Source: a virus. Taken from it: a stretch of 57,089 bases of DNA. Below the pieces are notes generated by a model, which was not told where the DNA came from, ran no database searches, and worked only from the letters and a program-made list of their open reading frames with translations. Below are positions 459 to 50,820 of the stretch, in pieces. The position numbers and the translations under genes are program-made. The first letter of the stretch is position 1; every line of letters starts with the position of its first letter. The DNA is taken from the IMG/VR virus record IMGVR_UViG_3300025867_000001. One strand, given 5' to 3'.

Positions 459-500
459 TTAGGCTCCTTTCTACCGTCAAAAAAGAAAGGCCGTGAGGGC

Positions 501-530
501 CCTTCTCATTATATTCCATGATTTTATTGG
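501..530 (-). promoter_or_regulatory. Promoter-like motif, a family member lacking the upstream TCGCA element.
   Basis: Minus strand reads CCAATAAAATCATGGAATATAATGAGAAGG. It has a perfect TATAAT (513-508) followed by GAGAAG, upstream of the junction-spanning gene. Confidence 0.4.
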
Positions 531-4104: not shown

Positions 4105-4133
4105 TATAATATCCTCCTTATAATTTTTATATG

Positions 4134-4163
4134 TTCTCATTATAGTCTATGTTTTTTTCGCGA
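4134..4163 (-). promoter_or_regulatory. Promoter-like motif (phage consensus).
   Basis: Minus strand reads TCGCGAAAAAAACATAGACTATAATGAGAAC. TATAAT at 4144-4139 overlaps the stop of the upstream gene. Confidence 0.5.
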
Positions 4164-4334
4164 TTCTTCGACTATGCTATCACATAGAATATATACGATA
4201 AACACCATCGGATACCAAAATAGTATATTCGTCAGGAGCACTAGTGTATCCCATTCTGCCACCAAATAGATTGTACCGCAATAACAGCCTATCAAGACAA
4301 TTAATGCTAACGCACGAATGGCGCACTTTTTCAT
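4140..4334 (-). CDS. Small membrane protein (64 aa).
   Basis: ATG 4334 follows AAAAGGAGAA. The longer track ORF (to 4370) would run into a terminator hairpin. Two hydrophobic segments. Confidence 0.6.
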   Translation of the reverse strand: MKKCAIRALALIVLIGCYCGTIYLVAEWDTLVLLTNILFWYPMVFIVYILCDSIVEESRKKHRL

Positions 4335-4663: not shown

Positions 4664-4692
4664 AATAACATCTCCTAAATATAATTAAGTAT

Positions 4693-4722
4693 CTCTCATT
4701 ATAGAGGATGTTATTTTTGCGA
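4693..4722 (-). promoter_or_regulatory. Promoter-like motif (phage consensus).
   Basis: Minus strand: TCGCAAAAATAACATCCTCTATAATGAGAGA, directly after the terminator at 4723-4744. Confidence 0.55.
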
Positions 4723-4744
4723 GAAAAGGAGAGCCGAAGCTCTC
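4723..4744 (-). terminator. Rho-independent terminator.
   Basis: Minus strand: GAGAGC-TTCG-GCTCTC followed by CTTTTCT. Confidence 0.65.
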
Positions 4745-5102: not shown

Positions 5103-5132
5103 TTCTCATTATAGGCTAAGATATAAATGAAA
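5103..5132 (-). promoter_or_regulatory. Promoter-like motif, a weaker upstream match.
   Basis: Minus strand: TTTTTCATTTATATCTTAGCCTATAATGAGAAT, directly after a hairpin terminator. Confidence 0.45.
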
Positions 5133-5418: not shown

Positions 5419-5445
5419 TTTATTAGCCTCCAATATAATGATTAT

Positions 5446-5476
5446 TTCTCATTATAGGGTAAGATTTTACTGCTAA
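5446..5476 (-). promoter_or_regulatory. Promoter-like motif, a weaker upstream match.
   Basis: Minus strand: TTAGCAGTAAAATCTTACCCTATAATGAGAAA. Confidence 0.45.
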
Positions 5477-5934
5477 AATATCACGACGTACTGATTCGGC
5501 GAGGCAAGAAATACACCCAGATGCTTGTTATAAACTTTGGGCATATTCGGAATATAACGACCAAACTTGACGAGAATTTGCCCACGATATCTTTGAGCTG
5601 CTTGGATGAAGCTGTCGCTTGTGATACTAATATCATACCCGGTATATATGATTATTGGAGTATCCTGCCCCCGAGCAACTCCTGCATCAATAAAGCTTAC
5701 AACTTCGTCCATATTGCAGAAAGGCTCTAATCCTCCCATAACAATTGCGCTTGTTATGGCGTTTTTCTCATACCTTCCCCAAATTTCTTCATCCGGGAAA
5801 TTTTTGGTTTCCAATTCGGCAAGATGTGTATTCTGACAGCCTTTGCATTTCCAAGTACATTCGGGAACGACCAGAAGCATTGATGCCTGTTTGTAATCGC
5901 CAAAACTTTCGTCAATTATTTGTTTTAGATGCAT
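5473..5934 (-). CDS. nrdG: Anaerobic ribonucleotide reductase activating protein (radical SAM).
   Basis: CxxxCxxC cluster in VVPECTWKCKGCQN, small size (153 aa), and position just downstream of nrdD. Confidence 0.8.
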   Translation of the reverse strand: MHLKQIIDESFGDYKQASMLLVVPECTWKCKGCQNTHLAELETKNFPDEEIWGRYEKNAITSAIVMGGLEPFCNMDEVVSFIDAGVARGQDTPIIIYTGYDISITSDSFIQAAQRYRGQILVKFGRYIPNMPKVYNKHLGVFLASPNQYVVIF

Positions 5935-6325: not shown

Positions 6326-6337
6326 TTATAAACTCCT

Positions 6338-8272: not shown

Positions 8273-8483
8273 TATTCTGGGCTCCTTTGAAATATAAATT
8301 TATTACCAGCTGAGCATCATCTCTGATTTCTGTGTCAATCTGGATTTCCCATGGATACAAGTTGTGCATATTGCAATACTCTCTCATCGCTTTGACGAGC
8401 GTATCGTAATAATGATTAATCACTTCCTCCAGTGTTACTGGATTTTCCTCCATCGTCACTTGATCCAAACCCTCCTTCCCCAC
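8262..8483 (-). CDS. Hypothetical small protein; start uncertain.
   Basis: 73-aa ORF overlapping the dUTPase 3' end. GTG near 8459 (10 nt after GGAGGG) is a plausible alternative start. Confidence 0.45.
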   Translation of the reverse strand: MGKEGLDQVTMEENPVTLEEVINHYYDTLVKAMREYCNMHNLYPWEIQIDTEIRDDAQLVINLYFKGAQNNDK

Positions 8484-11122: not shown

Positions 11123-11271
11123 TCTTTCTCTCCTTTTTAAAATATAAATGAGAAGAATACAATGCTGTTTTCTATCTTCAGAGTCTTACTCGCGTTTCCG
11201 CTGATAGATCCCATGCTACTTAAATCTGAATGCATTATTGATCATCACATTGTACCGGTCAGAGCCGTTTC

Positions 11272-11304
11272 TTCTCATTATAGACGAAGTTAAATCTGCG
11301 CGAA
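11272..11304 (-). promoter_or_regulatory. Promoter-like motif (phage consensus) preceding a ~150-nt leader.
   Basis: Minus strand: TTCGCGCAGATTTAACTTCGTCTATAATGAGAAG. It overlaps the ligase 3' end. Confidence 0.5.
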
Positions 11305-13081: not shown

Positions 13082-13157
13082 GGGCATGGCTAGTGGCTTC
13101 GAACCACGTCTCCGATTGCTCGGCGAGTTACCATTACTCCATGCATTTAGCATGCCC
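13082..13157 (-). ncRNA. 76-nt tRNA-like cloverleaf RNA candidate without an anticodon loop; not a canonical tRNA.
   Basis: Minus strand: GGGCATGCTA...TAGCCATGCCC closing stem (7+3 bp); D-like hairpin GAGT-AATGGTA-ACTC; CCGA-GCAA-TCGG (GNRA tetraloop) where the anticodon arm should be; T-like hairpin GTGG-TTCGAAG-CCAC. The 5' G lies 5 nt after TATAAT. Confidence 0.35.
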
Positions 13158-13186
13158 TTTCATTATACGGTATGTTATTTGTGCGG
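13158..13186 (-). promoter_or_regulatory. Promoter-like motif (phage consensus).
   Basis: Minus strand: CCGCACAAATAACATACCGTATAATGAAAGG, with TATAAT at 13167-13162. Confidence 0.5.
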
Positions 13187-13187
13187 A

Positions 13188-13683: not shown

Positions 13684-13710
13684 CTCATTATAGGGCAAGT
13701 TATTGGTGAG
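13684..13710 (-). promoter_or_regulatory. Promoter-like motif, partial upstream match.
   Basis: Minus strand: CTCACCAATAACTTGCCCTATAATGAGTTA. Confidence 0.45.
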
Positions 13711-13933
13711 AGGCCATAATATCAACGGCCTTTATCTTGCCCGGTATGTATTTTGGAAGGTAGACGTAATAGGAATCGCCGTAATGAACGAGTTGCTCAG
13801 GGTTTTTCACTCCGTACTCTTTCATACAGTTCAGAGCATCACCCAACTCGGTGAATTTAAGGACATTCCACTCTTTCATCTCTATGGGGCCCATGGTAAG
13901 GCCTCCTGAGCCCCCATACCCGTCGTTACTCAT
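13700..13933 (-). CDS. Hypothetical small protein.
   Basis: 77-aa ORF whose start overlaps the stop of the upstream holin-like gene. Confidence 0.55.
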   Translation of the reverse strand: MSNDGYGGSGGLTMGPIEMKEWNVLKFTELGDALNCMKEYGVKNPEQLVHYGDSYYVYLPKYIPGKIKAVDIMASHQ

Positions 13934-15276: not shown

Positions 15277-15289
15277 CCTATCAACTCCC

Positions 15290-15318
15290 TTCATTATAGA
15301 GCAAGTATTATCTCCGAG
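15290..15318 (-). promoter_or_regulatory. Promoter-like motif, partial upstream match.
   Basis: Minus strand: CGGAGATAATACTTGCTCTATAATGAAGGG. Confidence 0.45.
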
Positions 15319-16039
15319 GATACACTTTTGAGGATATCACTAAGACTGGCGTACCATGCTCGTCCAATTGGCTCGAATAATCAAGCTCAATTAAGCCTCG
15401 GTCAATGTCCCATCCCATCTCATCTCCAAGAACTGTATTCGGGAGATCGAGGGCATAATATAAATCATTGAGACTGAGCCACATCTCCGAGAGAAGATCC
15501 CTATTAAGCTCGTTGACACTTTGCCGAATCTTTTCAATGTCCGATTTGAAATACCGTCCTGTCAAGGCATCAAGGCATAAGACATCTCCCTTTCCTGTAA
15601 ATATAACTTCGTGGTTTCCGACTGGATTAGCCAAAACCTTGTCCTTAGCAACTTCATCTCGTATTTGCCGATCCTTAGTCTTGCCAATTGTCTCAACGAC
15701 CTTGCCTTGGTACTCCCTGAAGGCTGCTTCGCTCAGAGAATATAAAGCGGCTAAGGCCGCATTGCGCTTGGTACTTATTGTATTAGCGCCTATAATACAG
15801 GCAATTGATGTAACGCCAACGATTCCTGCGGGAATATAACACTTCCATGTGAGCTTAATCTTCCCCAAGCCATTTAACTCTTCGCTATCCTCCAAAAGTT
15901 GGATGGCCCTAGGAGTGGCCTTTACCGCTAATATAGCTGTGGTGACCACACCAGCGCATCCAAGCCCTGTAAGGATTTGAGGACTGTTTTTAGAAATGAC
16001 ACCCCCGAGATTTTTTGCTATTTGTTTAATTGGAACCAT
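15308..16039 (-). CDS. Membrane-anchored hypothetical protein, paralog of 2637..3638.
   Basis: See 2637..3638. Shared TM segment and RNAALAALYSLSEAAFREYQGKVV core. Confidence 0.75.
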   Translation of the reverse strand: MVPIKQIAKNLGGVISKNSPQILTGLGCAGVVTTAILAVKATPRAIQLLEDSEELNGLGKIKLTWKCYIPAGIVGVTSIACIIGANTISTKRNAALAALYSLSEAAFREYQGKVVETIGKTKDRQIRDEVAKDKVLANPVGNHEVIFTGKGDVLCLDALTGRYFKSDIEKIRQSVNELNRDLLSEMWLSLNDLYYALDLPNTVLGDEMGWDIDRGLIELDYSSQLDEHGTPVLVISSKVYPRR

Positions 16040-16467: not shown

Positions 16468-16508
16468 AATGCTCCTCCTTTTAAAATAAAAAGTAATGTT
16501 TTCATTGC

Positions 16509-16538
16509 TTCTCATTATAGTCCATGTTATTGCTGCGA
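16509..16538 (-). promoter_or_regulatory. Promoter-like motif, the best consensus copy.
   Basis: Minus strand: CTCGCAGCAATAACATGGACTATAATGAGAAG. 27 nt (16512-16538) are identical to 16706-16732. Confidence 0.6.
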
Positions 16539-16540
16539 GG

Positions 16541-16566
16541 ATAAAAAGAAACCACTCGGTTTCTTT
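16541..16566 (-). terminator. Rho-independent terminator.
   Basis: AGAAACC-(4 nt)-GGTTTCT hairpin flanked by A/T runs on both sides. Confidence 0.7.
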
Positions 16567-16679: not shown

Positions 16680-16704
16680 TATTATTAATCCTCCTAAATA
16701 TCAT

Positions 16705-16732
16705 TTCATTATAGTCCATGTTATTGCTGCGA
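16705..16732 (-). promoter_or_regulatory. Promoter-like motif, the best consensus copy.
   Basis: Minus strand: TTCGCAGCAATAACATGGACTATAATGAAATG. Confidence 0.6.
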
Positions 16733-16756
16733 AAAAAGAATAGGCGCCGAAGCGCC
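16733..16756 (-). terminator. Rho-independent terminator.
   Basis: Minus strand: GGCGC-TTCG-GCGCC followed by TATTCTTTTTT. Confidence 0.65.
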
Positions 16757-17002: not shown

Positions 17003-17030
17003 GTTTTATCTCCTTTTCAAAATATAAATG

Positions 17031-17060
17031 TTCTCATTATAGGAGATGATAAAAATGCGA
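17031..17060 (-). promoter_or_regulatory. Promoter-like motif (phage consensus).
   Basis: Minus strand: TTCGCATTTTTATCATCTCCTATAATGAGAAC, directly after a terminator. Confidence 0.5.
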
Positions 17061-17088
17061 AAAAAGAGACGCCCTGTTAAGAGCGTCT
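17061..17088 (-). terminator. Rho-independent terminator closing the structural and lysis block.
   Basis: Minus strand: AGACGC-(10 nt)-GCGTCT followed by CTTTTTT. Confidence 0.65.
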
Positions 17089-21500: not shown

Positions 21501-21519
21501 ATATAATCTCCTTTACGTA

Positions 21520-23598: not shown

Positions 23599-23616
23599 CT
23601 AGGAAACGTCCCTCCC

Positions 23617-24396
23617 TTACAACCATCGATTTTGCCAAATTGCAGTCACATCCATATGTTCTGCGGAATCAGTATTGATAGCTATTTCATTATCGCCCGG
23701 AGATAGTTCAAAAAATATCGAATCGGTTGTCACAGAACTAACGTCTTCAATACTGTTGAATAGAACGGTTAGTAGATCAGTATCGATTATAACCGTCTCA
23801 CCAGGCAATAGGTTAATGTCTTCAAGAGTAAAGGACTTTTCATTCAAAGCACTAAGTCGGCGAAGAGTAAACACTGACGCCCCAGACATAGCAATCGTTA
23901 TGGGTATCTGGAAATTCAGATTTTTGACCGTCATCAAACTTCCAGAAGATAGGTTGACATTATCAAGAAATGCAAGACTATTTATTTCAATACCAACATC
24001 GCTGACCCCAACAAATGAAACATTCAAATTTTGCAGGACCAATACCCTATTATCGATTTCCAATGACGCGTAACCCGAGAGATTTGCACTCAGTGGCATC
24101 CGCAGATTCATGTTGACTGTAACATCGCCACTGGCTTTAATATTGGTTATCGGAACCTGATAAAAGACTACTGTCAATTCATTAATTCCACCGGAGCCAG
24201 AGAATTCTGTCCCAAATAAGGCAGAGGCGTACAATCCAGGAACCAAGGATGAGGAACCACTAAAGGATATAGAAATAGGAGTCGGGAACCCCATGTTTAA
24301 CTGAAGGGCTCCCGATGCAACAATGCTGATACTTATCCCACTTGAGGAGACGCTTCTGTCGAAAGCGTTCCTGTCGAATTGAATCCTATCGAACAT
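23617..24396 (-). CDS. Siphovirus tail component (Dit-like C-terminal signature).
   Basis: C-terminal part: LLPGETVIIDTDLLTVLFN...ELSPGDNEIAINTD...IWQNRWL. Confidence 0.5.
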   Translation of the reverse strand: MFDRIQFDRNAFDRSVSSSGISISIVASGALQLNMGFPTPISISFSGSSSLVPGLYASALFGTEFSGSGGINELTVVFYQVPITNIKASGDVTVNMNLRMPLSANLSGYASLEIDNRVLVLQNLNVSFVGVSDVGIEINSLAFLDNVNLSSGSLMTVKNLNFQIPITIAMSGASVFTLRRLSALNEKSFTLEDINLLPGETVIIDTDLLTVLFNSIEDVSSVTTDSIFFELSPGDNEIAINTDSAEHMDVTAIWQNRWL

Positions 24397-28300: not shown

Positions 28301-31300
28301 AAGGCCTCTACAGCCGGACCAACATTTGAGAAGTCAACGCCTACTAATAAATCTACAAAGCCAACAAAGTCCTTGCCAAAATCTGTTAATGGAGTATTCT
28401 TGCTGAATAATTTAAAGAACCCGGACCGGTTGTCAGTGATTTCGCCAATGTCACCAGCAAGAGTTGCAAAGTTCTTAAGGGCCGGAAGCATCACATCAGC
28501 CATTGTCTGGAGATTGGATGTCCCGGTACTCAATAACGTCGAGTCAATATCTCCGAATGTTGAAACAATGCCGGCAACACTTTCTGAGAATGTGGCTATA
28601 TCATTATCCCCGAAGAATTTCGAGATGTTACCGCCACTATTTGGGATGTACCTCGCAACATCGGCAAATCTCTTTAGATTAGTTGCCATTGGGAGCATGG
28701 CCTCGAGCGCTGCACTGGCGGGTTTAACATCGTTTTCGACATCAAGGCCTTCCAGATATCCAACGAAACCACTAAGCATCAATCCAAATGTGTCAATATC
28801 ATTCTCGCCAAGAAAATCCCCAAGAAAGCCACCACTATTCGGAATTTCTTTTGCCGAATTAGCAAGCGTTTTAAGATTATCTGCTATCGGAGCTAATTCG
28901 GCCAGAATATTCTTAGCATGATTGGCGGCATGTAACGACATACCTTCGCCATTGAGAGCATTGATAAAACCTTGCAGCATTCTTCCGTATATATCAATGT
29001 CATTATTACCAACGAAGTCTCCAAGGAAGCCGCCACTATTCGGGATCGTTTTAGCAGCGGTTGCTACCTTCTCGAGATTTTCCGCCATCGGTGCGAGGGC
29101 GGCTAAGATATCCGTAGCTCCATTCGCATCATCAACTGAGACTAACTTCAGAGCTTCAATAAGCCCAACCAATTGTAAACCGAATTTCTCCATTGGGGAT
29201 AGGCCAAAGTTTACAAGTCGCGATATCCCATCAAGTATCGCTGCCCCTGTAATTGCCAATACCGCAGCTGCCAAGTCACCAATTCCAGAGAAGGAACCAG
29301 GCTTTACCTCACTTAATGCTGCGGCAAACCCAGCGATTCCCTCGCCAATACCGGTTAATGTTTCTATTGCAAAGCCACCGATAAAGGCCCCGATAAACCG
29401 TCCAATACCTTCGGCAACCGAAACTAATAAGTCAATTCCATTTTGAAGAGATTCTGAGTTCTCCTTATAAAAGAGGTTAAGCAGTTCAGCGAGACCGACA
29501 AAAGCAAGAACAATAGCACCGACTGAAACAACTGCCGCGACTACACCAAGAAGAACTGGACCAATTCCGGCACCGAGGGCTGCCAAGGGTCCGCTAAGCA
29601 ACGAAATAGCGGTAACCATTACACCAATTAACGCAATACCGGCTACGAATTTCCCAAAATCTGACCACTCTATCTGCTTAAGCTTATCATTGACTAAAGA
29701 TATAGCAACGAATAAGCCAGCAGTTGCGGCAATCACTGCAGCTAAAGTCGCAAAGGCAGGTATAAGATTCATCAGTTGTTTGCCAATCTTACTCCATGAT
29801 GCTCCTGCATAATTATTCTTAATTAAGGCATTAAACGCCGCAAGCAACAAACCAATCCCTGCAACACCAGTCGCAAATTTGCCAAGGGTGTCCCAGTCCA
29901 CTGAATCAATAATTGGTGCTATATACTTTAGTGCAACAAACAAGCCAACTGTGGCCCCGATAATGGCAACCAGTGTAACAAATGCAGGTATAAGATTTTT
30001 AAGAACACTAATCTTTTGAGTCCCTGCTTGAATCAAGGAAAGAGCTTTTATTACAGCGGCGATCGATAACGCCATACCAGAAATAGCTATTGCTGCGATC
30101 GCGAGAGAGACACTGGCACTACGTAAATCTTCAGCTGGAATAGCACTTAATAAAGCTAAAGATATGGTCAAAGCCAGGATTGCGGCAACCGTCCCGATTA
30201 GGACCCCAAAGGATTTTGCATCACCACTAATTTTTCCCACTAAAGCGGTTATTAGCTCAATAGCCCCTATAAGCCCAACCATTGCCGAGATCGTCAACAA
30301 TCCCTGCTGAATCTCTTCAATCGTAAAGTTTTTAAGTATTGCAATAATGGCAGTAAAAGCGCCCATAGTAAGCGCAACCGACAAGAGTATTTTCTGAGTT
30401 TTATTCCCTCCGCCAATTCGTGCAGAGGCCGCTGTAAGGAGCTCAAGGGCTGCGATGATCCCGCCCATTTTGGCAATAACGATTAATCCATTATCAATGG
30501 CTACCCCGGCTTTTCCCATCTCGCTGATAATGGCAATCAACCCAAGCATTGCAGCCATCCCAAGCGTAATGGAAAGTATGTTCGATTTAAACTTACTTCC
30601 TCCGCCTATCCGGCCGGCAACACCAAATAAAACTTCCATGGCGGCCAATACCAAACTTATAAGAGCTAAGTTTTTGAGACCACTGGTGATTGTATCTGTT
30701 TTGACCATAGAGAGGATCTTCATTACACCAAGCATAGCCAGAATTCCAACAGATAAACTGAGAATATTCTGACTGACCTTATTACTACCGCCTATCCGAG
30801 CAGCCAAACCAAATACGATCTCAGCAGCACCCAAAAGGGCCATAATTCCTGCAAGTTTAATAACACCCAGAGCAACCTCGTCCTCACTTATCCCGGACAA
30901 TAGCTTAACTGCCGCGACAAGTAACAATATACCAGCTCCAAAACTAAGGAAACCAAGATCCAATGTCCCTGCCCCAGGGAGCATCATAAGAAGGGTTGTA
31001 AGTACTTCATAGGCGGCCAATAGTCCGCCAATCGCGGCTAAAACTTTAACCGATCTCCAGACCGTACTCTCATCAATTTTGCTAATAGTCTTGAGTGCAA
31101 GGACCAAGATACCCAGAGCCGCAGAAACGCCAATGAGATTGAGCGCTTGCGCCTTAATGTCCTGAAGTCCAAGTTTCTTTGTTAGAAATCCTCCGGTAAG
31201 ATTAATTACCTGAAGAGCCGCATAGACCCCAATAAACTCGAGTAATGCCAAGCCAAGGGTCTTCAATGCATTTTTAGCCTTATCAGCTGGTATGGTAGAT

Positions 31301-33387
31301 AAAACCCAGATACTCGCGGCTAAAGTACCAATAATAATTGCGAGATCCCGTAAAAGATTGGGTTTTGCTTTTTCAAATAGACCACTAAAACCAGATACAA
31401 TATTTTTTAATGCTTTGACTAAACCGGTGCTTGCACTAATAAATTTGCTAATTTGAACAACAAATAGTAATAGGACGCCAGCAACAACAAATTTAGTTAT
31501 TTGACTAAAATCCAGATTTTTTATTACGTCGCCGAATGATTTAAAACCAGACGTTACACTCGATAAATCAAACCCCTTGAAGAGGTCCGTGAAAGACTTA
31601 AATCCACTTTTTGCGAATGTCGCTATATTAGATCCTAAAGTCTTGAACCAACCGATTATAGTGGCTAAAGGTTTTGGCAATTTATTGGATAGCCAATCGA
31701 CTACCATTTTGATTGAGTCGACTATGCCGCCGAATACCTCGGAAGCAAAATCCCCAAGAACCTGTAAAGGGTCATCCGCCTCCCACAAGGTTTTGACGAA
31801 ATTTACAACAACACCAACGACAGACAAAATTGCATTACGTATTAAAAGCGCGGCTATCTCAACACCCAATAAGGCATATTGAAAAAAGCCACTAGATTTA
31901 ATTGCTTTATTTATTTCAACTAAGAAATCTCCCAAACCGGCAGTCGCTTCGCCTATTCCACCAACAAATGGAACAAGTACCTTTGCTGCAGTAAAAAGTG
32001 CATTTACGAAGAATTTAACAAGCTGCCAACCAATGTCGATGACTGCAAACAGACCAGCAAAAGTCCTTCGTATATTGTCGGCTGTTTTTTCTCCGATAAT
32101 TAATTTTTGGGTAAAATCGGAGAATATTTTGGTCATCTCTAGCCATTGCTCTTTTGTCCTCGGCGGAAATATTTGATCAAATGCTTGAGAAATAGGATGC
32201 AAAATACTAAGGAGGGCAACCGCTGCCTTTTGCAGTCCCTGGAACATATTAGAAATGCCGCCTTCTTCTTTAATCCAAGCGAGCATTTCATTCCGAACCT
32301 CACCACTGGCAGCAAAGATCGTATAGAGCGTCTCAGTCAGAGCAGAGAAGTTTTTCTTCGCTTCATCCAATTCCCCAAAGATAATCTCATATGTACGCAT
32401 CCATCCAGAAGATACGGCATCCTTAGTAGCACTAATAGCTTCGCCGAATGTTTTAGCAGTTTGCGCTGCCCTAAAACTTTCTTCTGCAATCTTGGAGTAT
32501 TGACCTGCCAAAGCATCCATTGCCTCGGATGCGGTATCGTAGACGCCTTCGTCAACAAGTTTATATGCTGCTTGCGAAAGCTCGGAGAACTTCCCGAATG
32601 CAGCTTCCATTACCCTAGTATCGGCCCACTTTTCTTGTAATGTGGTACCAAAGTTTCCAATATCAACAATAGTACCTTTAACCGTTTGGCCCTTTTCATT
32701 AAGAGCGCCCAACTCGATACCGGTTTCAATGAAAATCTGCTTAAGTTGTTTACCGGCTATGCCCGCCAGTTCTAAACTTTTCCAGTCTATATATTGTAGA
32801 TTACCTGAACCATAAGATTGGTTAAGATTATACATAGCCCTGCTAAATTCAGCAGCACCTTTGCCGGCAAAAGCAGTCGCATTTGCCACACCAGTAATTA
32901 AAGGAATCAGCTTCTCAACGTCACCGCCAGAGGAAGTCATTTGAGCAAGCGCAGCTGTCATATCCGTAAAGCCGTAGCTTGTTTCATCAGAAAACCACAT
33001 CAATTGGTCAAGATAGCCGTTAACTTCATCAATACTTTTGCCCGTCGCATTCATGATGGTCTGAACCGAAGCTAACTTCTGTTCATATTTAGTCCATCCC
33101 GATGCTAATTGATCAATCGTCAAGTTTTTCAGAAGTTTGGCGCCAGCATCTACGGCAGCTTCACCAATTCTCCGTAAAGCACCAATGCCAATCTGCTCTA
33201 AGGCAGAGAAAGAACTCGATAAGGAGCCAACAGATTTTTCTAGACCGTCAAAGTTCTTACCAGTTCCAGTATCTTTTAAGGCCTTACTAAATTCTTTTAA
33301 TGACGTTCCGGATTCTGCAATGCCCTTTTCAAACTTTTTATTCTCGAAGGACATTTCCACAATTCTTTGATCTATTTTATTACTCAT
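25396..33387 (-). CDS. Tape measure protein (2663 aa) with a long polytopic hydrophobic middle region.
   Basis: ATG 33387 follows GGAGGGAGG and overlaps the upstream stop (ATGA). Evidence is its size, its position after the chaperones, coiled-coil C-terminal third, and internal 65-aa repeats. Confidence 0.85.
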   Translation of the reverse strand: MSNKIDQRIVEMSFENKKFEKGIAESGTSLKEFSKALKDTGTGKNFDGLEKSVGSLSSSFSALEQIGIGALRRIGEAAVDAGAKLLKNLTIDQLASGWTKYEQKLASVQTIMNATGKSIDEVNGYLDQLMWFSDETSYGFTDMTAALAQMTSSGGDVEKLIPLITGVANATAFAGKGAAEFSRAMYNLNQSYGSGNLQYIDWKSLELAGIAGKQLKQIFIETGIELGALNEKGQTVKGTIVDIGNFGTTLQEKWADTRVMEAAFGKFSELSQAAYKLVDEGVYDTASEAMDALAGQYSKIAEESFRAAQTAKTFGEAISATKDAVSSGWMRTYEIIFGELDEAKKNFSALTETLYTIFAASGEVRNEMLAWIKEEGGISNMFQGLQKAAVALLSILHPISQAFDQIFPPRTKEQWLEMTKIFSDFTQKLIIGEKTADNIRRTFAGLFAVIDIGWQLVKFFVNALFTAAKVLVPFVGGIGEATAGLGDFLVEINKAIKSSGFFQYALLGVEIAALLIRNAILSVVGVVVNFVKTLWEADDPLQVLGDFASEVFGGIVDSIKMVVDWLSNKLPKPLATIIGWFKTLGSNIATFAKSGFKSFTDLFKGFDLSSVTSGFKSFGDVIKNLDFSQITKFVVAGVLLLFVVQISKFISASTGLVKALKNIVSGFSGLFEKAKPNLLRDLAIIIGTLAASIWVLSTIPADKAKNALKTLGLALLEFIGVYAALQVINLTGGFLTKKLGLQDIKAQALNLIGVSAALGILVLALKTISKIDESTVWRSVKVLAAIGGLLAAYEVLTTLLMMLPGAGTLDLGFLSFGAGILLLVAAVKLLSGISEDEVALGVIKLAGIMALLGAAEIVFGLAARIGGSNKVSQNILSLSVGILAMLGVMKILSMVKTDTITSGLKNLALISLVLAAMEVLFGVAGRIGGGSKFKSNILSITLGMAAMLGLIAIISEMGKAGVAIDNGLIVIAKMGGIIAALELLTAASARIGGGNKTQKILLSVALTMGAFTAIIAILKNFTIEEIQQGLLTISAMVGLIGAIELITALVGKISGDAKSFGVLIGTVAAILALTISLALLSAIPAEDLRSASVSLAIAAIAISGMALSIAAVIKALSLIQAGTQKISVLKNLIPAFVTLVAIIGATVGLFVALKYIAPIIDSVDWDTLGKFATGVAGIGLLLAAFNALIKNNYAGASWSKIGKQLMNLIPAFATLAAVIAATAGLFVAISLVNDKLKQIEWSDFGKFVAGIALIGVMVTAISLLSGPLAALGAGIGPVLLGVVAAVVSVGAIVLAFVGLAELLNLFYKENSESLQNGIDLLVSVAEGIGRFIGAFIGGFAIETLTGIGEGIAGFAAALSEVKPGSFSGIGDLAAAVLAITGAAILDGISRLVNFGLSPMEKFGLQLVGLIEALKLVSVDDANGATDILAALAPMAENLEKVATAAKTIPNSGGFLGDFVGNNDIDIYGRMLQGFINALNGEGMSLHAANHAKNILAELAPIADNLKTLANSAKEIPNSGGFLGDFLGENDIDTFGLMLSGFVGYLEGLDVENDVKPASAALEAMLPMATNLKRFADVARYIPNSGGNISKFFGDNDIATFSESVAGIVSTFGDIDSTLLSTGTSNLQTMADVMLPALKNFATLAGDIGEITDNRSGFFKLFSKNTPLTDFGKDFVGFVDLLVGVDFSNVGPAVEALGQINESFAVVGAEVMANAKKSFENNKKPYIDAIIAILTEANKAVTDNKQPIIDNIEGIAKDLPGKTETYKKKFKTLGEDLLKGLKSGIESQTEKKSLLTAIADVANSVVAKAKSIFDSSSPSKVFMTIGGWCTAGLALGITSKTKLATDAATDMALDTEKAVRDALGVHSLSDIWAKIGEWLPKSLGSGMTSVKDWLLNLAKNLGIDTSKFTLDGISETLADATNSSSLTKGIEALLEQFQSTVEDADIGSKIGDALGSAGTDIGNSIGDNIADGLADSLKDSKNVEKAEEAVESLLDKLQATLDERKFYGQLSLEEELEAYKAIRAEYAEGSEERKRIDREIYTLEKQIYEAQKQYIEDIAAAQKKAAEDRLALEKEYADAVAQVNADLQSKLADYQKAYNDTVADAYADAQQKRQAADQEYSNSYNDILKRAEDERIRAREDYANKQKEINQKLLSDIDAQNKAYEDAVKSRADAIYGAYGLFDEVKPDEEVTGEELLQNLRDQGAALSEWQQSLEALRARGVSEALIEELQKMGPSSKAQIKALLTLTDEQLDEYVSLFQGKYAFARTQAEAELVGLRESTNENIRQLISDAGTELADLETTFQSTMSNIDQQCSSDLNDLAQTYSQKLAEINSDLESKLAQAQQTLAENTQQANDEAAAKLEELKTNFDKEMTEINENLEDQLKTIKENFADTMKTVKEKSTEELDELNKVFKKKIEDINNGIDVQLDTLEENFDTTLGNVVTNTSQQMDDLVTKVESASTGFYTAGLNAAQSFATGLRDGTWYAQLAAQALANAAVAAANQALDIGSPSKIFMAMGRFVSEGFAKGITAYSSKAEDSTETMAQNIIAAMGNALAMLEGTDSEFSPVITPVVDLSVARRQFQTANDLLDSSNSYQIAQQSAKLAASTKDRQNGSVETSTVINNNFNLTGMQVRSDADIDDIAQKLYNKQQTAMRGRGLKAFSY

Positions 33388-33755
33388 AGGCCCTGAACCT
33401 CCCTCCAACATTCCTCAGCCATCTGATCGAATATTGGTTGCAAGGCAGGATTAATATAGTCGCGGCCTTGCACATATCCACCATTCTTAGTGGCATGACC
33501 ATATTGCAGTAAGATGGCTACAGGATAACCATTTTGGAAATTAGAATTAGAAAATCCAATTCCCCAATCCTCGATGGCATATGACCAAGATTCAGAAGTT
33601 AGACCGCTGTCTTTAGGAGTTGCCGATTTAAGTGCTTCGACACCTTTAGCTCCATATCTCGAGAGCGCGGTTCTAAGCCTACGACTGAGATTTTTGCTAT
33701 TGTCGAAGAATCTTTCAGCATTCTTAAAAGACCCGCGATGAGTCAATTTAACCAT
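33384..33755 (-). CDS. HK97 gp10-like small structural protein.
   Basis: 123 aa; LKSATPKDSGLTSESW...LLQYGH pattern gives weak family recognition. Confidence 0.35.
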   Translation of the reverse strand: MVKLTHRGSFKNAERFFDNSKNLSRRLRTALSRYGAKGVEALKSATPKDSGLTSESWSYAIEDWGIGFSNSNFQNGYPVAILLQYGHATKNGGYVQGRDYINPALQPIFDQMAEECWREVQGL

Positions 33756-33776
33756 GCTTGATTCTCCTTTACTATT

Positions 33777-34199
33777 TTAGACGCGACAATTGTTTACAAG
33801 TTCGCGATACTCTTCATTAGAGACGATTTTCCAATCTTTTTTCTTTTCCCACCAGATTGATTCTTCACCATTGCCTTTTAGATCCTTATACACTTCATGG
33901 AGCCTATTCTGAACATTAGCTTCATCGTCCGTCCATGCTCCGAGATCCCGGTTCAACTTAAAACATTGGTATAAATCATTTCGAAGGAGCGCCAAAAGTG
34001 CTTGGCTTTGAATTATCTGTAAATTACTAATACTAACTAGGTTTTGCTGAACAACCATCATTTGCTCCGACATTTTTTTTAATTCGGAGTAGTCTGTATT
34101 AACTCTTTTTACGGCCCTCAATAAACCAAGTTTATCGAGAAGCGTTATGATGGTAATGATTCCAGCACAGATACTAACTATAAGTTGCCAAACTTCCAT
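33777..34199 (-). CDS. Membrane-anchored protein downstream of the endolysin; a possible holin or lysis accessory.
   Basis: N-terminal TM segment (WQLIVSICAGIITIITLL) then a helical soluble part. Confidence 0.35.
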   Translation of the reverse strand: MEVWQLIVSICAGIITIITLLDKLGLLRAVKRVNTDYSELKKMSEQMMVVQQNLVSISNLQIIQSQALLALLRNDLYQCFKLNRDLGAWTDDEANVQNRLHEVYKDLKGNGEESIWWEKKKDWKIVSNEEYRELVNNCRV

Positions 34200-46974: not shown

Positions 46975-49821
46975 CTATTTGCTTAACGCCTGGGAGATAA
47001 GAGACGTAGAAACACCCAGCATATCGGCAATCTCAGCCAACGATCGCCCTTGTTGTTGATAGATGCGGGCGCGTGCAAGTTTACTGGGAGACAAAGAAGA
47101 CTGTGCTCTCGGAGTTGCTAAATCCTGAATAGCTTTCAAGTCTGCATTATTTAAAATTTGAGATAATAAAGAATTACTAATTGCACCAGCACTGATCGCT
47201 TCCCATTCGTTAGCAGTAATCTGAATTCGTTGCTTTGATGCTCCAACACGAGTTCGCATGTCAGCCAACACTTGTCCTTTTAACTTTTTAATTTGCGATC
47301 TTTCCATATTAGGATTTGCAGCTTTCTTTGTTTCAACAATTTTATTTCCAGCTAAGTGCACCTGACGTTCGAGGGGGGCATTAGATTGCGCCACCCGGAG
47401 CTTACTTTTTAACGAGGCTACTTCAGAAGAATATGTCTGCTTCGCTGATGAAGAATAAGAAGTCATTTTGATATTGGCGCTTTCCTTACGGGCTTGATTA
47501 CCCAGGGCCTTCATATCATTGGCGTAGTTTGCATACACCAGTTCAATGGTAGCGGGGTTTTTACTGAGTAATGTACGGGCATCTTCTGTTTCATACATCT
47601 TTGTTGATTTAATCTGGGACTTAATAAACTTACCTTGGGCATTTACATATCCCTCACCTGTTGAAACCCATACCTTTTTACCAGTAGTGGTGTCAACAGA
47701 GTAGGCCCCCTTTCGAATCAGGGGGGAGTCACCAGTTTGTTCTTTGGTGAGGGCTTTTCGTTTATCGACACGTTGTTCCGAAGATGCTCTCGAAACTAAT
47801 GTTGAAGCTCCTCTTGGATTAGAAACAGTTCCTCCTTGATAGGTGGCCTTTAATTCTGCAATGCCGTTGTCAATATAGGATTGGGTATAGTTTAATTCAT
47901 GCTTCTCGGCATCAATTACAACCATGGAATGCTTAACCGCCCGAGCAATGTCATCGGGTGGTGCTCCCTTAATTGTCATGTCCGTAATTAAATTAGATAC
48001 TTTGCCCATTTCCTGTTGCTTAACCACGTTAGTAATGACGGGCATGCCTGGATACTTAGGATACGCTTTCTTGGGATCGAAGTCCTTTAATGCTACCAAT
48101 GGGGAATCAACTTTGATTAACTTAGGATTATAGGGGATAGCAATAACCGTATCCCCATCAAAGTCGGCGCCGGATAGCACCTCTGCAGTATGTGGGGTAA
48201 TACCAATAGCATCTGATGCCGTTCCTAATATTGATTTACCTTCTTTATTCCGAGTATTATTAGTAACAACCGGTAGCTCAAATGTTCCCGCATGCGGATG
48301 CCGGATCAGTACGAGCTTCTCGCCATCACGATACCTTGATGAATAACATTCATCCTCTTTCAAAGAGGTAATAGGTATAATTACATTGGACGTTTGACGA
48401 GGCATAGCGGCAGCTTTTAAATGGACCGCCTTTGAATCACAATCATCGGCAAAAGAATCAAGAAGCCGTTGTTTAACAACGGGTTGGGTAATCTTTTGAT
48501 ACTGATCAAACGTTTCCTTTTGGTCTAAGTACGACAAAGTCAATTGTTGCTTCGCTAATTCGGGGGATTGCTTTGAAAGAAACTGGCTTGATAAAGTCTT
48601 GCTCCATGTTTCCCAGCTTCCCTCAACTCCCGAATCTTGTTTCCCTGCAAACCCTACAATATTTAAAGCTGATTGCTTTTCCGTGCCATCCCGGTCTGTG
48701 TATGTAGTTTGACGGATTGTGGCACCGAACTCATTTATCTTCTGTTTGCCTTCTTTATCCAAATAAATCGCGCCTCCCTCATTATCTTCAACAGTTACAT
48801 TCATCTTCTTCATAGCACCTAGTTTGCCAACAGATGAATTTTTATTAGTATTGTAAATAATGTCAACCCCATCAGGCATGTCGTCTGAGTAAATAGCCAT
48901 ACCTTTCAGATAATGAGTGCCATCCACAGCAACTCGAACTTGGGCGTAATGTTTATCTTGCGGTAATGCAATGTCCGCCACTCCCCTACGAATCTGAACG
49001 ACACCATCCATAGAAGAGCCAGAAGGCTTATCATCATCGAACCGAACCTTAATTCTTTTTGAATCAACAGAAATGGGAGGCTTAACTGACTTATAGGTTA
49101 CGCCACCATCCGAAGACCAATCGCTAATCATACGAATGTCACCCGAATTCTTCGTCGCATGCAAATAGGCAGCGGAAACAGTTCTTTCCTCATCTGTTTT
49201 TGTGGCCCATTTTTCGGGGTACTGCTCTTTATATGCGCTTCGGGCAGTAGTTAGTGTATCGGGAGACATTAAAACACGAACGGTTGTCTTACCTGAAGTT
49301 CCTAGCTGCGGTGTTTGAATATTTGTGACCACATATCCTTCCGATTCAAGTTCGGCAATGGATACATCTAATTTTGATTTGGTCACACCAAGAAGCTGAA
49401 GATTGGATCCGGTACCAACGTCGATCATGCCTTTTTTATTTGCTTGCTCTTTAAGCATGTTCTTAGTGGCTTCGTTTACTTTGTGCCGGTCTTCTGTTTC
49501 GGGCATCAGAATCTTTTTTACTGTATTTGGAGAAACGCCAATCCTTTGCGCAATAGCGGAATCAGAATAACCCTTCGCCTTGAGCCTCACCGCCATTGCC
49601 GACTGGGCGCCATAAACGGCTTCTGATTCGGTATGAATGCGAGCCCTTAACTGAGTTGTATTCATAGCAAATGACTCGGCTATTTGCTTTTCAGACAACC
49701 CTTGTTTTTTTAATTCCGATACTTGCTGCCCAAAAGTTTTTGACCTTTGAGGCTCATCTCCAGACCCCCAAGGATATCGGCCACTGTGCCGTTTTGTACC
49801 ATAATGCATCAAAAATGCCAT
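46975..49821 (-). CDS. Two-barrel (double-psi beta-barrel) RNA polymerase-like protein with N- and C-terminal HTH domains.
   Basis: aa 302-326 THYLKGMAIYSDDMPDGVDIIYNTN is RNAP beta-like (GRHGNKGV..EDMP..DG.PVDI.LNP). aa 502-564 KLVLIRHPHAGTFELP...LSGADFDGDTVIAIPY is beta-prime-like (LNRAPTLH...NADFDGD); the DFDGD codons are at 48151-48165. HTH-like segments are at aa 38-62, 82-105 and 920-945. Confidence 0.6.
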   Translation of the reverse strand: MAFLMHYGTKRHSGRYPWGSGDEPQRSKTFGQQVSELKKQGLSEKQIAESFAMNTTQLRARIHTESEAVYGAQSAMAVRLKAKGYSDSAIAQRIGVSPNTVKKILMPETEDRHKVNEATKNMLKEQANKKGMIDVGTGSNLQLLGVTKSKLDVSIAELESEGYVVTNIQTPQLGTSGKTTVRVLMSPDTLTTARSAYKEQYPEKWATKTDEERTVSAAYLHATKNSGDIRMISDWSSDGGVTYKSVKPPISVDSKRIKVRFDDDKPSGSSMDGVVQIRRGVADIALPQDKHYAQVRVAVDGTHYLKGMAIYSDDMPDGVDIIYNTNKNSSVGKLGAMKKMNVTVEDNEGGAIYLDKEGKQKINEFGATIRQTTYTDRDGTEKQSALNIVGFAGKQDSGVEGSWETWSKTLSSQFLSKQSPELAKQQLTLSYLDQKETFDQYQKITQPVVKQRLLDSFADDCDSKAVHLKAAAMPRQTSNVIIPITSLKEDECYSSRYRDGEKLVLIRHPHAGTFELPVVTNNTRNKEGKSILGTASDAIGITPHTAEVLSGADFDGDTVIAIPYNPKLIKVDSPLVALKDFDPKKAYPKYPGMPVITNVVKQQEMGKVSNLITDMTIKGAPPDDIARAVKHSMVVIDAEKHELNYTQSYIDNGIAELKATYQGGTVSNPRGASTLVSRASSEQRVDKRKALTKEQTGDSPLIRKGAYSVDTTTGKKVWVSTGEGYVNAQGKFIKSQIKSTKMYETEDARTLLSKNPATIELVYANYANDMKALGNQARKESANIKMTSYSSSAKQTYSSEVASLKSKLRVAQSNAPLERQVHLAGNKIVETKKAANPNMERSQIKKLKGQVLADMRTRVGASKQRIQITANEWEAISAGAISNSLLSQILNNADLKAIQDLATPRAQSSLSPSKLARARIYQQQGRSLAEIADMLGVSTSLISQALSK

Positions 49822-49844: not shown

Positions 49845-50396
49845 TTAAGAGGTAGCTTGCTCGATTCGCTTATCAAAATCTTTAATTTTTTGCATAATAT
49901 ACAAAATCTCCTCGGCATCAGGATTCCAACACAAAATTTCATCGTTCTGATAAAGACGAAGCTCAATATCTAACTCATTTGGGGAACACCGGTATTCCAA
50001 ACAAAATATAGCGGCATAAATTTCCAGTTGCTTTGCTGATGCTGGAGTTGCTCCCGTTTTCAAATCAAAGATTTTTAGCTTATTATCTTTGAACAAAATT
50101 GCGTCGCAAGTCCCAAAACAATTAACTGAATAAAATAATGTAACTTCCGGATCCATCCTAAAACCAATGCAATCATTAATATACATGTTATAGGTTTTCT
50201 TTGGGGTTGATGGAAGTTTTATTCTATTCTTTATGAGCCTCGAAGCAAGCTCGTGTAGTTCGGTTCCCCTTTGTGCGGCTTGCCATGAACTATAGACTTC
50301 GTCTAATTTTTGTTCATCATAGCGAACCCAATGATATTTAGAAGGACTAAGAAAAGCATGTCGGCCATCCAAATTCAAATGATTATTCCATTTCAC
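49845..50396 (-). CDS. PD-(D/E)xK exonuclease (RecB/Cas4/YqaJ-like).
   Basis: Motifs seen: GTELHE, CDAILFKDNKLKIFDLKTG, QLEIYAAIF. Confidence 0.6.
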   Translation of the reverse strand: MKWNNHLNLDGRHAFLSPSKYHWVRYDEQKLDEVYSSWQAAQRGTELHELASRLIKNRIKLPSTPKKTYNMYINDCIGFRMDPEVTLFYSVNCFGTCDAILFKDNKLKIFDLKTGATPASAKQLEIYAAIFCLEYRCSPNELDIELRLYQNDEILCWNPDAEEILYIMQKIKDFDKRIEQATS

Positions 50397-50689
50397 ACAT
50401 TGTATCTCCTTTCAAGCTCCTCCATAATTTCCTCCTTATTTTCCGGAAATATAAAAGTCGCATTGTTTTTTAAATCTGACTCATTAACATAATATTCCTG
50501 ATTTGGCCGATGAGAGGCTTTAGAATTTCTTTTACATTCTAACAGCATGTATTGACCATTTGGAAAATACACAGTCACATCGGGGAAGCCTTGAATATAG
50601 GTGGGGTCATTAATAACAACTTCTGTTCCTGGAAATCTATCTCGAATTTCTTTATAGAGCTTCGTTTTAAATTCAGATTCTTTTTGCAT
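50393..50689 (-). CDS. VRR-NUC domain nuclease.
   Basis: GFPDVTVYFPNGQYMLLECKRNSKASHRPNQEYY. Confidence 0.65.
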   Translation of the reverse strand: MQKESEFKTKLYKEIRDRFPGTEVVINDPTYIQGFPDVTVYFPNGQYMLLECKRNSKASHRPNQEYYVNESDLKNNATFIFPENKEEIMEELERRYNV

Positions 50690-50785
50690 ATTCAGCCTCC
50701 GATCATAAAATAAAAATAAAGAAAAAGATAAGAACTGCTAATACCCATATTAATCCGGGAATCGAACCCGGAGTCAGCTCCTACC

Positions 50786-50815
50786 TTCTCATTATAGGCC
50801 ATGTTTTTTCTGCGA
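50786..50815 (-). promoter_or_regulatory. Promoter-like motif (phage consensus), the only copy in the replication/RNAP block.
   Basis: Minus strand: TTCGCAGAAAAAACATGGCCTATAATGAGAAGG. It lies upstream of the VRR-NUC, exonuclease and RNAP-like genes. Confidence 0.55.
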
Positions 50816-50820
50816 ATTCA

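Follow-up and report, generated by a model that had tools for sequence, protein, structure and literature searches.

The polymerase gene and its family

The DNA analysed here, a stretch of 57,089 nucleotides (nt) that we call the window (IMG/VR virus record IMGVR_UViG_3300025867_000001), comes from an uncultured phage of 42% GC and carries all of its genes on the minus strand. One of these, an open reading frame (ORF) with an ATG start codon at 46975..49821, encodes a protein of 948 amino acids (aa) that we read as a single-polypeptide two-barrel RNA polymerase (RNAP) of the phrog_4291 family; to this explanation, taken as a whole, we give a probability of about 0.78. A preliminary description, made from the letters of the sequence, had placed the ORF here and quoted seven of its peptides, all of which we find at the residues given, including the DFDGD of aa 553-557, encoded at 48151-48165. 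The gene and the segments of its product, among them helix-turn-helix (HTH) segments and two predicted double-psi beta-barrels (DPBBs), are as follows.

46975..49821, minus strand: gene of the probable single-polypeptide two-barrel RNAP with HTH domains, member of phrog_4291 (ORF, PHROG and fold matches)
49759..49812, minus strand: N-terminal motif LMHYGTKRHSGRYPWGSG (aa 4-21), strongly conserved and predicted to be disordered
49636..49701, minus strand: HTH-like segment 1 (aa 41-62; model helices, PHROG HTH families, cross-phylum conservation)
49507..49572, minus strand: HTH segment 2 (aa 84-105), sigma-70 region 4 / HTH_23 type (Pfam at aa 75-105)
48787..49074, minus strand: predicted first (beta-like) DPBB region, about aa 250-345 (strands, invariant residues, RpoB register)
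48127..48399, minus strand: predicted second (beta-prime-like) DPBB region, about aa 475-565 (strands, invariant residues, YonO collinearity, beta-prime matches)
47899..48030, minus strand: conserved helical hairpin after the second barrel (aa 598-641, MGKVSNLITDM ... RAVKHSMVVIDAEKH; helices 598-617 and 622-641)
46984..47049, minus strand: C-terminal HTH segment 3 (aa 925-946), sigma-70 region 4-like (Pfam, model helices)

HTH domains lie at both ends of the protein, and both are conserved in a four-phage alignment. Of the three HTH segments proposed in the preliminary description, the second and third are matched by Pfam families: at aa 75-105 by HTH_23 (1.2e-10), HTH_38 (1.3e-9) and Sigma70_r4_2 (8.3e-7), and at aa 923-947, within the segment 920-948, by Sigma70_r4 (7e-5; 22.7 bits, just below the 24.1-bit cutoff). 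The C-terminal domain forms three helices in the model (912-947), and its pattern AEIA..G.S.S has been conserved in different phyla. Segment 1 (aa 41-62) has no Pfam match of its own; PHROG HTH families span aa 19-61 and 27-105, the model places helices at 44-50 and 55-82, and the recognition-helix motif NTTQLR is conserved across phyla. Ahead of it, LMHYGTKRHSGRYPWGSG is invariant in four phages of different phyla and largely invariant in 50 relatives, and it is predicted to be disordered, with a predicted local distance difference test score (pLDDT) of 31-37; this peptide may serve in interaction, packaging or priming. Of the 31 Pfam families that match the single sequence at E <= 1, the best 25 give HTH families only and no RNA-dependent RNA polymerase (RdRP) or RNAP model; PF05183 is not among them and would at best lie far below its gathering threshold.

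Family membership is clear. The protein matches phrog_4291, named 'RNA-dependent RNA polymerase', with E = 0 and 1068 bits over aa 221-947 (profile positions 201-906 of 909). With tblastn, homologs were found in 250 deposited phage records, at least 80% of the query being covered in 249 of them and identity to the window protein staying below 60% in all. The host genera of these records include Arthrobacter (95), Gordonia (55), Streptomyces (54) and Lactococcus (13), the remaining homologs coming from phages of Curtobacterium, Microbacterium, Rhodococcus, Bifidobacterium and Faecalibacterium and from human-gut siphovirus contigs. Relatives are also encoded on at least 519 IMG/VR contigs, and an exhaustive search (E <= 1e-30) gave 813 clusters at 50% identity. 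The cultured members, from Lactococcus phage 1706, Arthrobacter phage Mudcat and Streptomyces phage Rima, are 35-47% identical over the whole length; relative to these three, the window protein has two insertions, one of about 30 aa near aa 190-220 and a second near aa 345-360. When 17 kb of the window were compared with deposited phages by Megablast, nothing matched. By these comparisons, the polymerase is a full-length, fairly divergent new member of a known, computationally described family.

A claim of striking novelty does not hold, because the family is already catalogued and has been discussed twice in the literature. Ruprich-Robert and Thuriaux placed the phage 1706 protein among five YonO-like families (2010; PMC2919709). 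Koert et al. described HTH domains at both ends, an RdRP-like core and a DxDGD motif, reported an HHpred link of 95.7% to the Pfam RdRP family (PF05183) with the family alignment, and identified the gene as a signature of an actinophage supercluster together with the Lactococcus 1706 and Faecalibacterium FP_oengus phages (2021; bioRxiv 10.1101/842583). The window protein has the same architecture and the same synteny as this '1706 family'; the window phage differs from the cultured members in carrying anaerobic ribonucleotide reductase genes and in having no close deposited DNA relative. Homologs are labelled 'RNA-dependent RNA polymerase' in some RefSeq records and 'helix-turn-helix DNA-binding protein' in most GenBank and actinophage records. 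The former name is inherited from PF05183 via remote homology.

Predicted fold and catalytic residues

We compared two AF2 models with the Protein Data Bank (PDB) by Foldseek, one of the full-length protein (38-sequence alignment, mean pLDDT 77.3) and one of the core, aa 230-700 (pLDDT 78.6, predicted template-modelling score 0.66); the fold is a prediction. For both models, every significant match is a two-barrel RNA polymerase. The best match of the full-length model is QDE-1 (4.9e-9, probability 1.0), with further matches to maize and Arabidopsis RDR2, bacterial beta-prime chains and, weakly, gp66 from phi14:2, a crAss-like phage. The core model matches QDE-1 (1.6e-9), P74-26 gp62 (2.1e-6), RDR2 (1.6e-5) and P23-45 gp96 (6.6e-5), and also plant Pol IV, bacterial and plastid beta-prime and AR9 nvRNAP; its matches to the beta-prime DPBB have a root-mean-square deviation of about 3.3 A over 140 columns. 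In the viral structure library BFVD, the matches are phage proteins that bear the name 'RNA dependent RNA polymerase', along with crAss-like segments. Within the models, a block of beta strands at aa 257-345 corresponds to the first barrel and strands at aa 477-563 to the second. The core (about aa 250-700) is thus predicted to have the fold of the QDE-1/RDR-type and Thermus-phage two-barrel RNAPs, and the order proposed in the preliminary description, a beta-like followed by a beta-prime-like DPBB on one polypeptide, is supported by structure prediction and fold search. That description had also named two outcomes that would speak against it, absence of a DPBB fold and a DFDGD segment lying in a Toprim or primase fold; Foldseek returned neither. 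Toprim, primase and right-hand polymerase folds are absent from the structural matches and the phage encodes a primase domain of its own, and we therefore reject a primase or Toprim origin of the DFDGD segment. That the protein has the two-barrel fold and is active as a polymerase is, in our view, very probable.

Residue conservation was examined in 50 relatives of 41-69% identity, in 38 close relatives and in the Mudcat, Rima and 1706 orthologs. The first-barrel region, which holds Q294-V-R296, K306-G307-M308 and the segment aa 302-326 (48844-48918) singled out in the preliminary description, has Y292, Q294, R296, K306, G307, P316, G318 and N324 invariant in the 50 relatives. In the second, which holds R507-H-P509-H510 (48292-48303) and DFDGD (48151-48165), R507, P509, H510 and S550-G-A-D553-x-D555-G-D557 are invariant, as are M605, G606, N610, L611, D614, D637, K640 and H641 of the hairpin that follows, a candidate bridge-helix-like element (aa 598-641). 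The same residues are identical in the Mudcat, Rima and 1706 orthologs, and the D553-F-D555-G-D557 loop never varies, whether in the 38 close relatives, the 50 diverse ones or four orthologs from different phyla.

These positions can be related to those of characterised enzymes. The superfamily has an invariant R-x-P upstream of the metal loop (Rpb1 R446/P448; QDE-1 R962/P964) and, in the beta-like barrel, two basic residues and one acidic residue (Rpb2 K979/K987/D837; QDE-1 R738/K743/D709) (PMC2919709). Here R507-H-P509 is invariant and aligns with YonO R492/P494 and, in a proposed register, with RpoC R425-A-P427; the metal loop is identical to RpoC NADFDGD. The first barrel has, at suitable positions, an invariant R296 and K306 and a D272 conserved to at least 90%, with equivalence by manual register only: K306 falls opposite RpoB K1073 and R296 near K1065, in a pairwise alignment that is not significant. 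On this basis six superfamily residues appear to map securely, R507, P509 and the three aspartates by alignment and K306 by register, while R296 would be the other conserved basic residue and D272 a candidate for the acidic one. The likeness of two short segments to beta and beta-prime, with which the preliminary description began, fared unevenly. Local alignment of the segments to Escherichia coli RpoB and RpoC and to YonO gave z from -1.1 to 0.9 against shuffles and did not recover the register that had been proposed; by eye, that register is visible (G.H..KG..DMP..G..VDI..N against RpoB 1068-1098; L.R.P.H...ADFDGD against RpoC 422-464) and involves residues that are family-invariant. Short-motif similarity of this kind is a lead and by itself no evidence.

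Could the protein instead be a catalytically dead polymerase relic that now serves as an HTH transcription regulator? HTH domains are the only ones to reach Pfam thresholds, and most GenBank records call the protein an HTH DNA-binding protein. However, the metal triad, the R-x-P, the first-barrel basic residues and the helix behind the second barrel are all invariant at 35-47% overall identity across phyla. Since a dead enzyme would not be expected to show such invariance, the pattern argues for an active enzyme, and we consider a relic very improbable.

YonO of the Bacillus prophage SPbeta is a single-chain two-barrel RNAP. It is DNA-dependent and transcribes the SPbeta late genes (Forrest et al., 2017; PMC5467207), and at 839 aa it is of a size with the 948-aa window protein. 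A profile alignment is collinear through R507/P509/H510 (YonO R492/P494/H495), D553/D555/D557 (D535/D537/D539) and G606/S609/N610 (G593/S596/N597). The sequence link is nevertheless marginal: hhalign against a 26-member YonO profile gave E = 0.02, probability 2.3% and one 120-column segment, which speaks for superfamily-level kinship only, and against YonO alone the family profile gave nothing relevant. The two families also differ at the C terminus, where YonO and its relatives have invariant C799/C802/C816/C819, zinc-ribbon-like in our own reading of the alignment, whereas the window polymerase lacks these cysteines and has an HTH. No Pfam HTH is among the precomputed matches listed for the YonO family, in a scan that covered relatives of YonO but not YonO itself; some of these relatives carry a PF05183 match. 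The two families may have different nucleic-acid-binding modules at the same C-terminal position. The gene yonO, at 21357-23876 of the SPbeta stretch, heads the late operon on the same strand, and the window polymerase likewise lies directly upstream of a structural block.

QDE-1 and RDR2 (PF05183) have the same barrel order and the same Q-x-R...KG type of motif in the first barrel, at 12-16% identity and with template-modelling (TM) scores of 0.30-0.37; they are eukaryotic silencing enzymes that act on RNA or single-stranded DNA templates, and the sources examined describe neither HTH domains nor promoter use. Thermus phages encode single-subunit two-barrel RNAPs, the non-virion P23-45 gp64 and P74-26 gp62 and the tape-measure-fused virion enzyme gp96, with P23-45 gp64 and gp96 each recognising a promoter motif of its own that is conserved in the phage (Chaban et al., 2024; PMC10770324). 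P74-26 gp62 (8f5m_A, 2.1e-6) and gp96 (8h2n_A, 6.6e-5) are structural matches of the window core; gp96 has an identical DFDGD, but beyond the metal loop it has no detectable sequence similarity to the window family (8h2n, E = 0.26). Chaban et al. do not mention a helix-turn-helix, and the supplements examined do not mention the window family. The closest structural relatives are the QDE-1/RDR-type enzymes and the Thermus phage RNAPs. The match to phi14:2 gp66, a virion-packaged single-chain two-barrel RNAP of 2166 residues that the preliminary description had also named, is much weaker (6vr4_A, E = 0.14) than the matches to QDE-1 or P74-26 gp62.

As QDE-1 and RDR2 are the closest structural matches, it could be asked whether the protein is not a transcriptase at all and is instead an RNA-dependent RNA polymerase or a primer-synthesising enzyme used in replication or counter-defence. 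Its gene lies in the replication module, near nucleases and a helicase, and PMC9508822 describes dual template specificity for QDE-1. But the database name comes from remote homology to PF05183, the characterised phage members of the clade are all DNA-dependent transcriptases, the phage already has a primase domain fused to its DNA polymerase, and three HTH domains of sequence-specific type together with the co-conserved motif described below fit transcription initiation better. We regard an RNA-dependent or priming role as improbable. Since YonO, P23-45 gp64 and gp96 and crAss gp66 are all DNA-dependent, the window enzyme is probably a DNA-dependent transcriptase of the phage genome, despite its database name.

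A promoter-like motif shared across phages

The window carries a repeated motif of about 30 nt in three boxes, TCGCA-N5-(A/T)ACA-N5-TATA(A/G)T-GAGA, whose core is the TATAATGAGAA that the preliminary description had reported as a 14-copy promoter consensus. A sequence profile built from aligned motif sites (R1; match limit E <= 1) indeed finds 14 matches, all on the minus, coding strand. Of these, 12 are solid matches, a further one is partial and the last, intragenic, probably arose by chance. The 12 solid sites lie between genes or just upstream of them, and none is in the structural block.

50783..50817, minus strand: promoter-like site (TTCGCAGAAAAAACATGGCCTATAATGAGAA) that heads the operon of endonuclease, exonuclease and polymerase genes (29.7 bits, E = 2.5e-8)
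17027..17063, minus strand: promoter-like site (E = 5.9e-7)
16701..16735, minus strand: promoter-like site (E = 3.6e-8)
16504..16541, minus strand: promoter-like site (E = 6.9e-9)
15286..15320, minus strand: promoter-like site (E = 2.5e-5)
13684..13713, minus strand: promoter-like site (E = 3.6e-5)
13155..13187, minus strand: promoter-like site (E = 3.9e-6)
11269..11304, minus strand: promoter-like site (E = 8.7e-7)
5442..5478, minus strand: promoter-like site (E = 1.6e-4)
5103..5129, minus strand: promoter-like site with a weak upstream box (E = 8.1e-4)
4690..4725, minus strand: promoter-like site (E = 2.9e-8)
4130..4164, minus strand: promoter-like site (E = 5.7e-7)
502..528, minus strand: partial promoter-like site, an exact TATAATGAGAA (11-mer) with degenerate upstream boxes (E = 0.16)

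Directly downstream of the partial site, within window 480-528, is a terminator-like hairpin, GGGCCCTCACGGCC followed by a T-run; a promoter and a terminator seem to occupy overlapping positions where the gene at 524-1381 ends.

De novo k-mer counting in the three cultured phages 1706, Mudcat and Rima recovered the same architecture with identical spacing: TTTCGCATGTTTTACATATACTATAGTAGAAAG in 11 copies in Lactococcus phage 1706, TTCGCGTAAAATACAAGGGCTATAATG in 7 copies in Arthrobacter phage Mudcat and TCGCAAGAATTACACGCCCTATAATGAGACCCC in 12 near-perfect copies in Streptomyces phage Rima, a genome of 59.5% GC. Together with those of the window phage, 41 sites from four phages and three host lineages align without gaps into the consensus TCGCAnnnATTACAnGnnCTATAATGAGA, all on the coding strand. 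Among 80 diverse IMG/VR polymerase loci, R1 found 35 matches in 32 loci, every one on the strand of the polymerase; 31 of the 35, spread over 29 loci, lie 904-1051 nt upstream of the polymerase gene, and Mudcat has a copy at the corresponding position (55496). As controls, SPbeta (50 kb) and E. coli rpoBC gave no match. An exact-pattern scan of IMG/VR returned 81 stretches, most of them on contigs with distant homologs of window-phage genes (DNA polymerase 41-48% identity); two of these contigs also carry a listed relative of the polymerase, at 44-45% identity. The motif, conserved across the Streptomyces, Arthrobacter and Lactococcus phages and the window gut phage, is what our analysis adds to the published picture of the family: promoters are mentioned neither by Koert et al. 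nor in the Arthrobacter phage survey, and we found no earlier description of it in a literature search that did not extend to the original phage 1706 paper.

Two variations deserve mention. Several of the Rima sites (record 25889-34062) have an inverted repeat on either side, GGGGTCTC ... GAGACCCC, which extends into both the TCGCA box and the GAGA downstream and could form a stem with a loop of about 23 nt; the other phages do not have it to the same extent. Eight IMG/VR loci of one clade (51-53% GC) carry, about 0.9 kb upstream of the polymerase, a variant TCGCAA-N-CTACGCA-TATAATGATAA-GAAGGATAG that differs in its upstream spacing and is missed by R1 at E <= 1.

What reads these sites? In the scheme that we propose, the fused sigma-4-like HTH domains would bind the upstream boxes TCGCA and (A/T)ACA of the roughly 30-nt promoter, the AT-rich TATAAT would be the segment that melts and, with no sigma factor involved, RNA synthesis would begin at the purine-rich GAGA or immediately downstream of it. 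The enzyme would then drive the dozen non-structural transcription units, and read-through from the copy at 50783-50817 would drive its own operon and the structural block of about 30 kb. Non-sigma-70 spacing, conservation over 30 nt and across phyla that includes the downstream bases, parallel conservation of the HTH domains, whose recognition helices are conserved in the same phages that carry the motif, and the lack of another factor may together argue for phage-specific recognition. The last point agrees with the preliminary description, in which no further RNAP or sigma gene had been seen: of about 75 ORFs, 30 were scanned against PHROG and 10 against Pfam, with the structural-block and smallest ORFs outside the scans, and no sigma factor, second RNAP or other DNA-binding candidate was found. 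Cross-phylum conservation of the promoter would strengthen the hypothesis, also put forward there, of a self-contained, promoter-specific enzyme. We put direct promoter reading by the enzyme alone, through its fused HTH domains, at close to an even chance, and hold somewhat more tentatively to the specific version, a self-contained, sigma-independent two-barrel RNAP whose HTH domains and minimal core read TCGCA-N5-TACA-N5-TATAAT-GAGA over about 30 nt.

If the promoter hypothesis holds, a functional analogy could be drawn with T7-type RNAPs: one polypeptide that needs no sigma and uses a highly conserved phage promoter of about 25-30 nt, present in a dozen copies, in which an AT-rich element immediately precedes the purine-rich region of the start. 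The analogy is functional only, as the T7-type fold (right-hand, Pol I-like) is unrelated to the two-barrel fold and our Pfam, PHROG and Foldseek searches gave no T7-like match. The Thermus phage motifs, AT-rich and GC-rich, are unlike that of the window. For YonO, the promoter and any required factors are stated to be not known (PMC5467207).

A number of points weigh against the proposed enzyme and its promoter. At the level of sequence the links are weak: phmmer of the polymerase against PDB sequences found no match, the 50-sequence family profile found HTH matches only, besides a non-significant P23-45 gp96 (8h2n, E = 0.26), no Pfam RdRP model is among the families listed for the single sequence and the hhalign link to YonO stands at E = 0.02. 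Global TM-scores to QDE-1 are low (0.30-0.37), and the shared part is therefore the catalytic core and not the periphery; the domain arrangement outside the barrels differs or is poorly modelled. We infer, from alignment only, the placement of D553, D555 and D557 at the metal site and of an upstream acidic residue, for which D272 is the candidate. No biochemical or transcriptomic study of any family member was found in the literature. On the promoter side, the sites contain a perfect bacterial -10 hexamer, which host sigma-A holoenzyme, alone or with a phage factor, could read. The polymerase gene itself lies downstream of one copy, and this creates a bootstrapping problem for exclusive recognition by the phage enzyme. 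Finally, motif and polymerase co-occur with the whole gene set of the supercluster, so their association does not single out the polymerase.

The promoter-side points lead to an explanation in which the two-barrel RNAP is active but the TATAAT sites are read by host sigma-A holoenzyme, perhaps with a phage factor on the upstream boxes. The phage polymerase would then act elsewhere, for example in processive, YonO-like elongation of the structural operon from another start, and its HTH domains would serve another DNA-binding role. Besides the hexamer (TATAAT or TATAGT) and a polymerase gene that must first be transcribed by something else, this explanation can point to the copy nearest the polymerase being degenerate or absent in Rima and 1706, and to YonO, which has a single late promoter whose recognition determinants are not known. 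It fits less well with the fixed spacing of the upstream boxes, 14 nt from TCGCA to TATAAT and 5 nt from TACA to TATAAT, which is unlike that of a -35 element and comes with no TG extension. A consensus of about 30 nt, GAGA included, is common to phages of Actinomycetota and Bacillota, whose housekeeping promoters differ; SPbeta, rich in sigma-A promoters, gave no match; and the scanned ORFs (30 by PHROG, 10 by Pfam) offer no separate activator candidate. We consider reading by the host enzyme rather unlikely. A canonical sigma-70 promoter, with TCGCA or TTTACA as -35, is rejected because the spacing of 14 or 5 nt is not 16-18; a scan for sigma-70-type promoters and terminators around the polymerase gene stayed at background.

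Genome context and implications

On the minus strand, the order of genes is a 1307-aa primase-polymerase, a single-strand annealing protein, a helicase, an endonuclease, an exonuclease and the polymerase, then two small unknown genes, an HNH endonuclease, a virion protein and the large terminase with the structural block. Around the promoter-like site that precedes the polymerase, the features are:

50690..50782, minus strand: structured leader after the promoter-like site, a T-arm-like hairpin CCGGGUUCGAUUCCCGG in a longer stem, then a U-rich run (minimum free energy, MFE)
50393..50689, minus strand: endonuclease gene, first of the polymerase operon (phrog_93, 4.4e-10)
49845..50396, minus strand: exonuclease gene, directly upstream of the polymerase with a 23-nt gap (phrog_3953, 9.2e-71)

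The order from primase-polymerase to polymerase is the same in 1706, Mudcat and Rima and recurs in IMG/VR fragments. In these three phages no large gene follows that of the polymerase, which lies at the right genome end; on a circular genome it heads the structural block on the same strand. In the window, no convincing terminator was found between polymerase and terminase, and the polymerase appears to be co-transcribed with the endonuclease and exonuclease, the terminase and the structural block following directly downstream on the same strand.

This location bears on whether the polymerase might be packaged in the virion and injected with the DNA, like N4 vRNAP, crAss gp66 and P23-45 gp96, to transcribe motif-bearing early units, its own gene among them, as soon as infection begins. 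Delivery in this way would resolve the bootstrapping of a polymerase gene that lies behind its own type of promoter, and both the position of the gene at the right genome end in cos-type relatives and the conserved disordered N-terminal peptide could be fitted to it. But the gene belongs to the replication module and is not among the virion genes, and its 948-aa product has no virion-protein fusion, unlike known virion RNAPs. In addition, the phage 1706 record labels seven ORFs 'structural protein', labels that we take to come from virion proteomics, and the polymerase, orf75, is not one of them. We find virion delivery quite unlikely, and the polymerase is probably made inside the cell.

The leader at 50690..50782 contains a perfect tRNA T-arm-like hairpin, CCGGGUUCGAUUCCCGG, and folds with an MFE of -28.3 kcal/mol (z = -2.1). 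ARAGORN and Rfam matched nothing in the window, leader included; possible identities of the element are a small RNA, an attenuator and a tRNA remnant. At the junction of the tape-measure and minor-tail genes of Mudcat (about 23590-23640), a weak TATAATG site is followed by CGGTAGGAGCT...GATTCCCG, which resembles GGTAGGAGCTGACTCCGGGTTCGATTCCCG of the window leader (50750-50785), a resemblance that may be due to chance.

Elsewhere on the minus strand, two paralogous DUF6353 proteins are encoded at 2637-3638 and 15308-16039 (phrog_2152; Pfam 1.3e-67 and 1.1e-76), with distant homologs on most motif-bearing IMG/VR contigs of the supercluster. Genes for the large and small subunits of an anaerobic ribonucleotide reductase (NrdD-like and NrdG-like) occupy 5473-8272, a dUTPase 8416-8886 and an ATP-dependent DNA ligase 11290-12177. 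The motif-driven region is the nucleotide-metabolism and early region, and the anaerobic ribonucleotide reductase genes point to an anaerobic host, probably in the gut.

What would these findings mean for the family? For annotation, 'RNA-dependent RNA polymerase' and 'HTH DNA-binding protein' are each incomplete as labels. How a minimal two-barrel RNAP finds its promoters without sigma- or TFIIB-like factors is a question for which phrog_4291 has candidate specificity modules within the chain. As the family is large (at least 519 IMG/VR contigs, 250 deposited phages and 813 clusters) and comes with a precise cross-phylum promoter candidate, sigma-independent recognition is directly testable in cultured phages, the relatives at hand being 1706 (Lactococcus), Mudcat (Arthrobacter) and Rima (Streptomyces); for covariation between promoter and HTH domains, the clade of 51-53% GC is useful. 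Should the enzyme prove self-sufficient, it could serve as a compact orthogonal expression system for Gram-positive hosts. If our proposal is true, these phages would have a 'T7-like' orthogonal transcription system drawn from the lineage of cellular RNAPs, which would also be an extant case of promoter recognition in which a sigma-like module is covalently attached to the polymerase, with a promoter that has changed very little during the spread of the phages through Actinomycetota and Bacillota.

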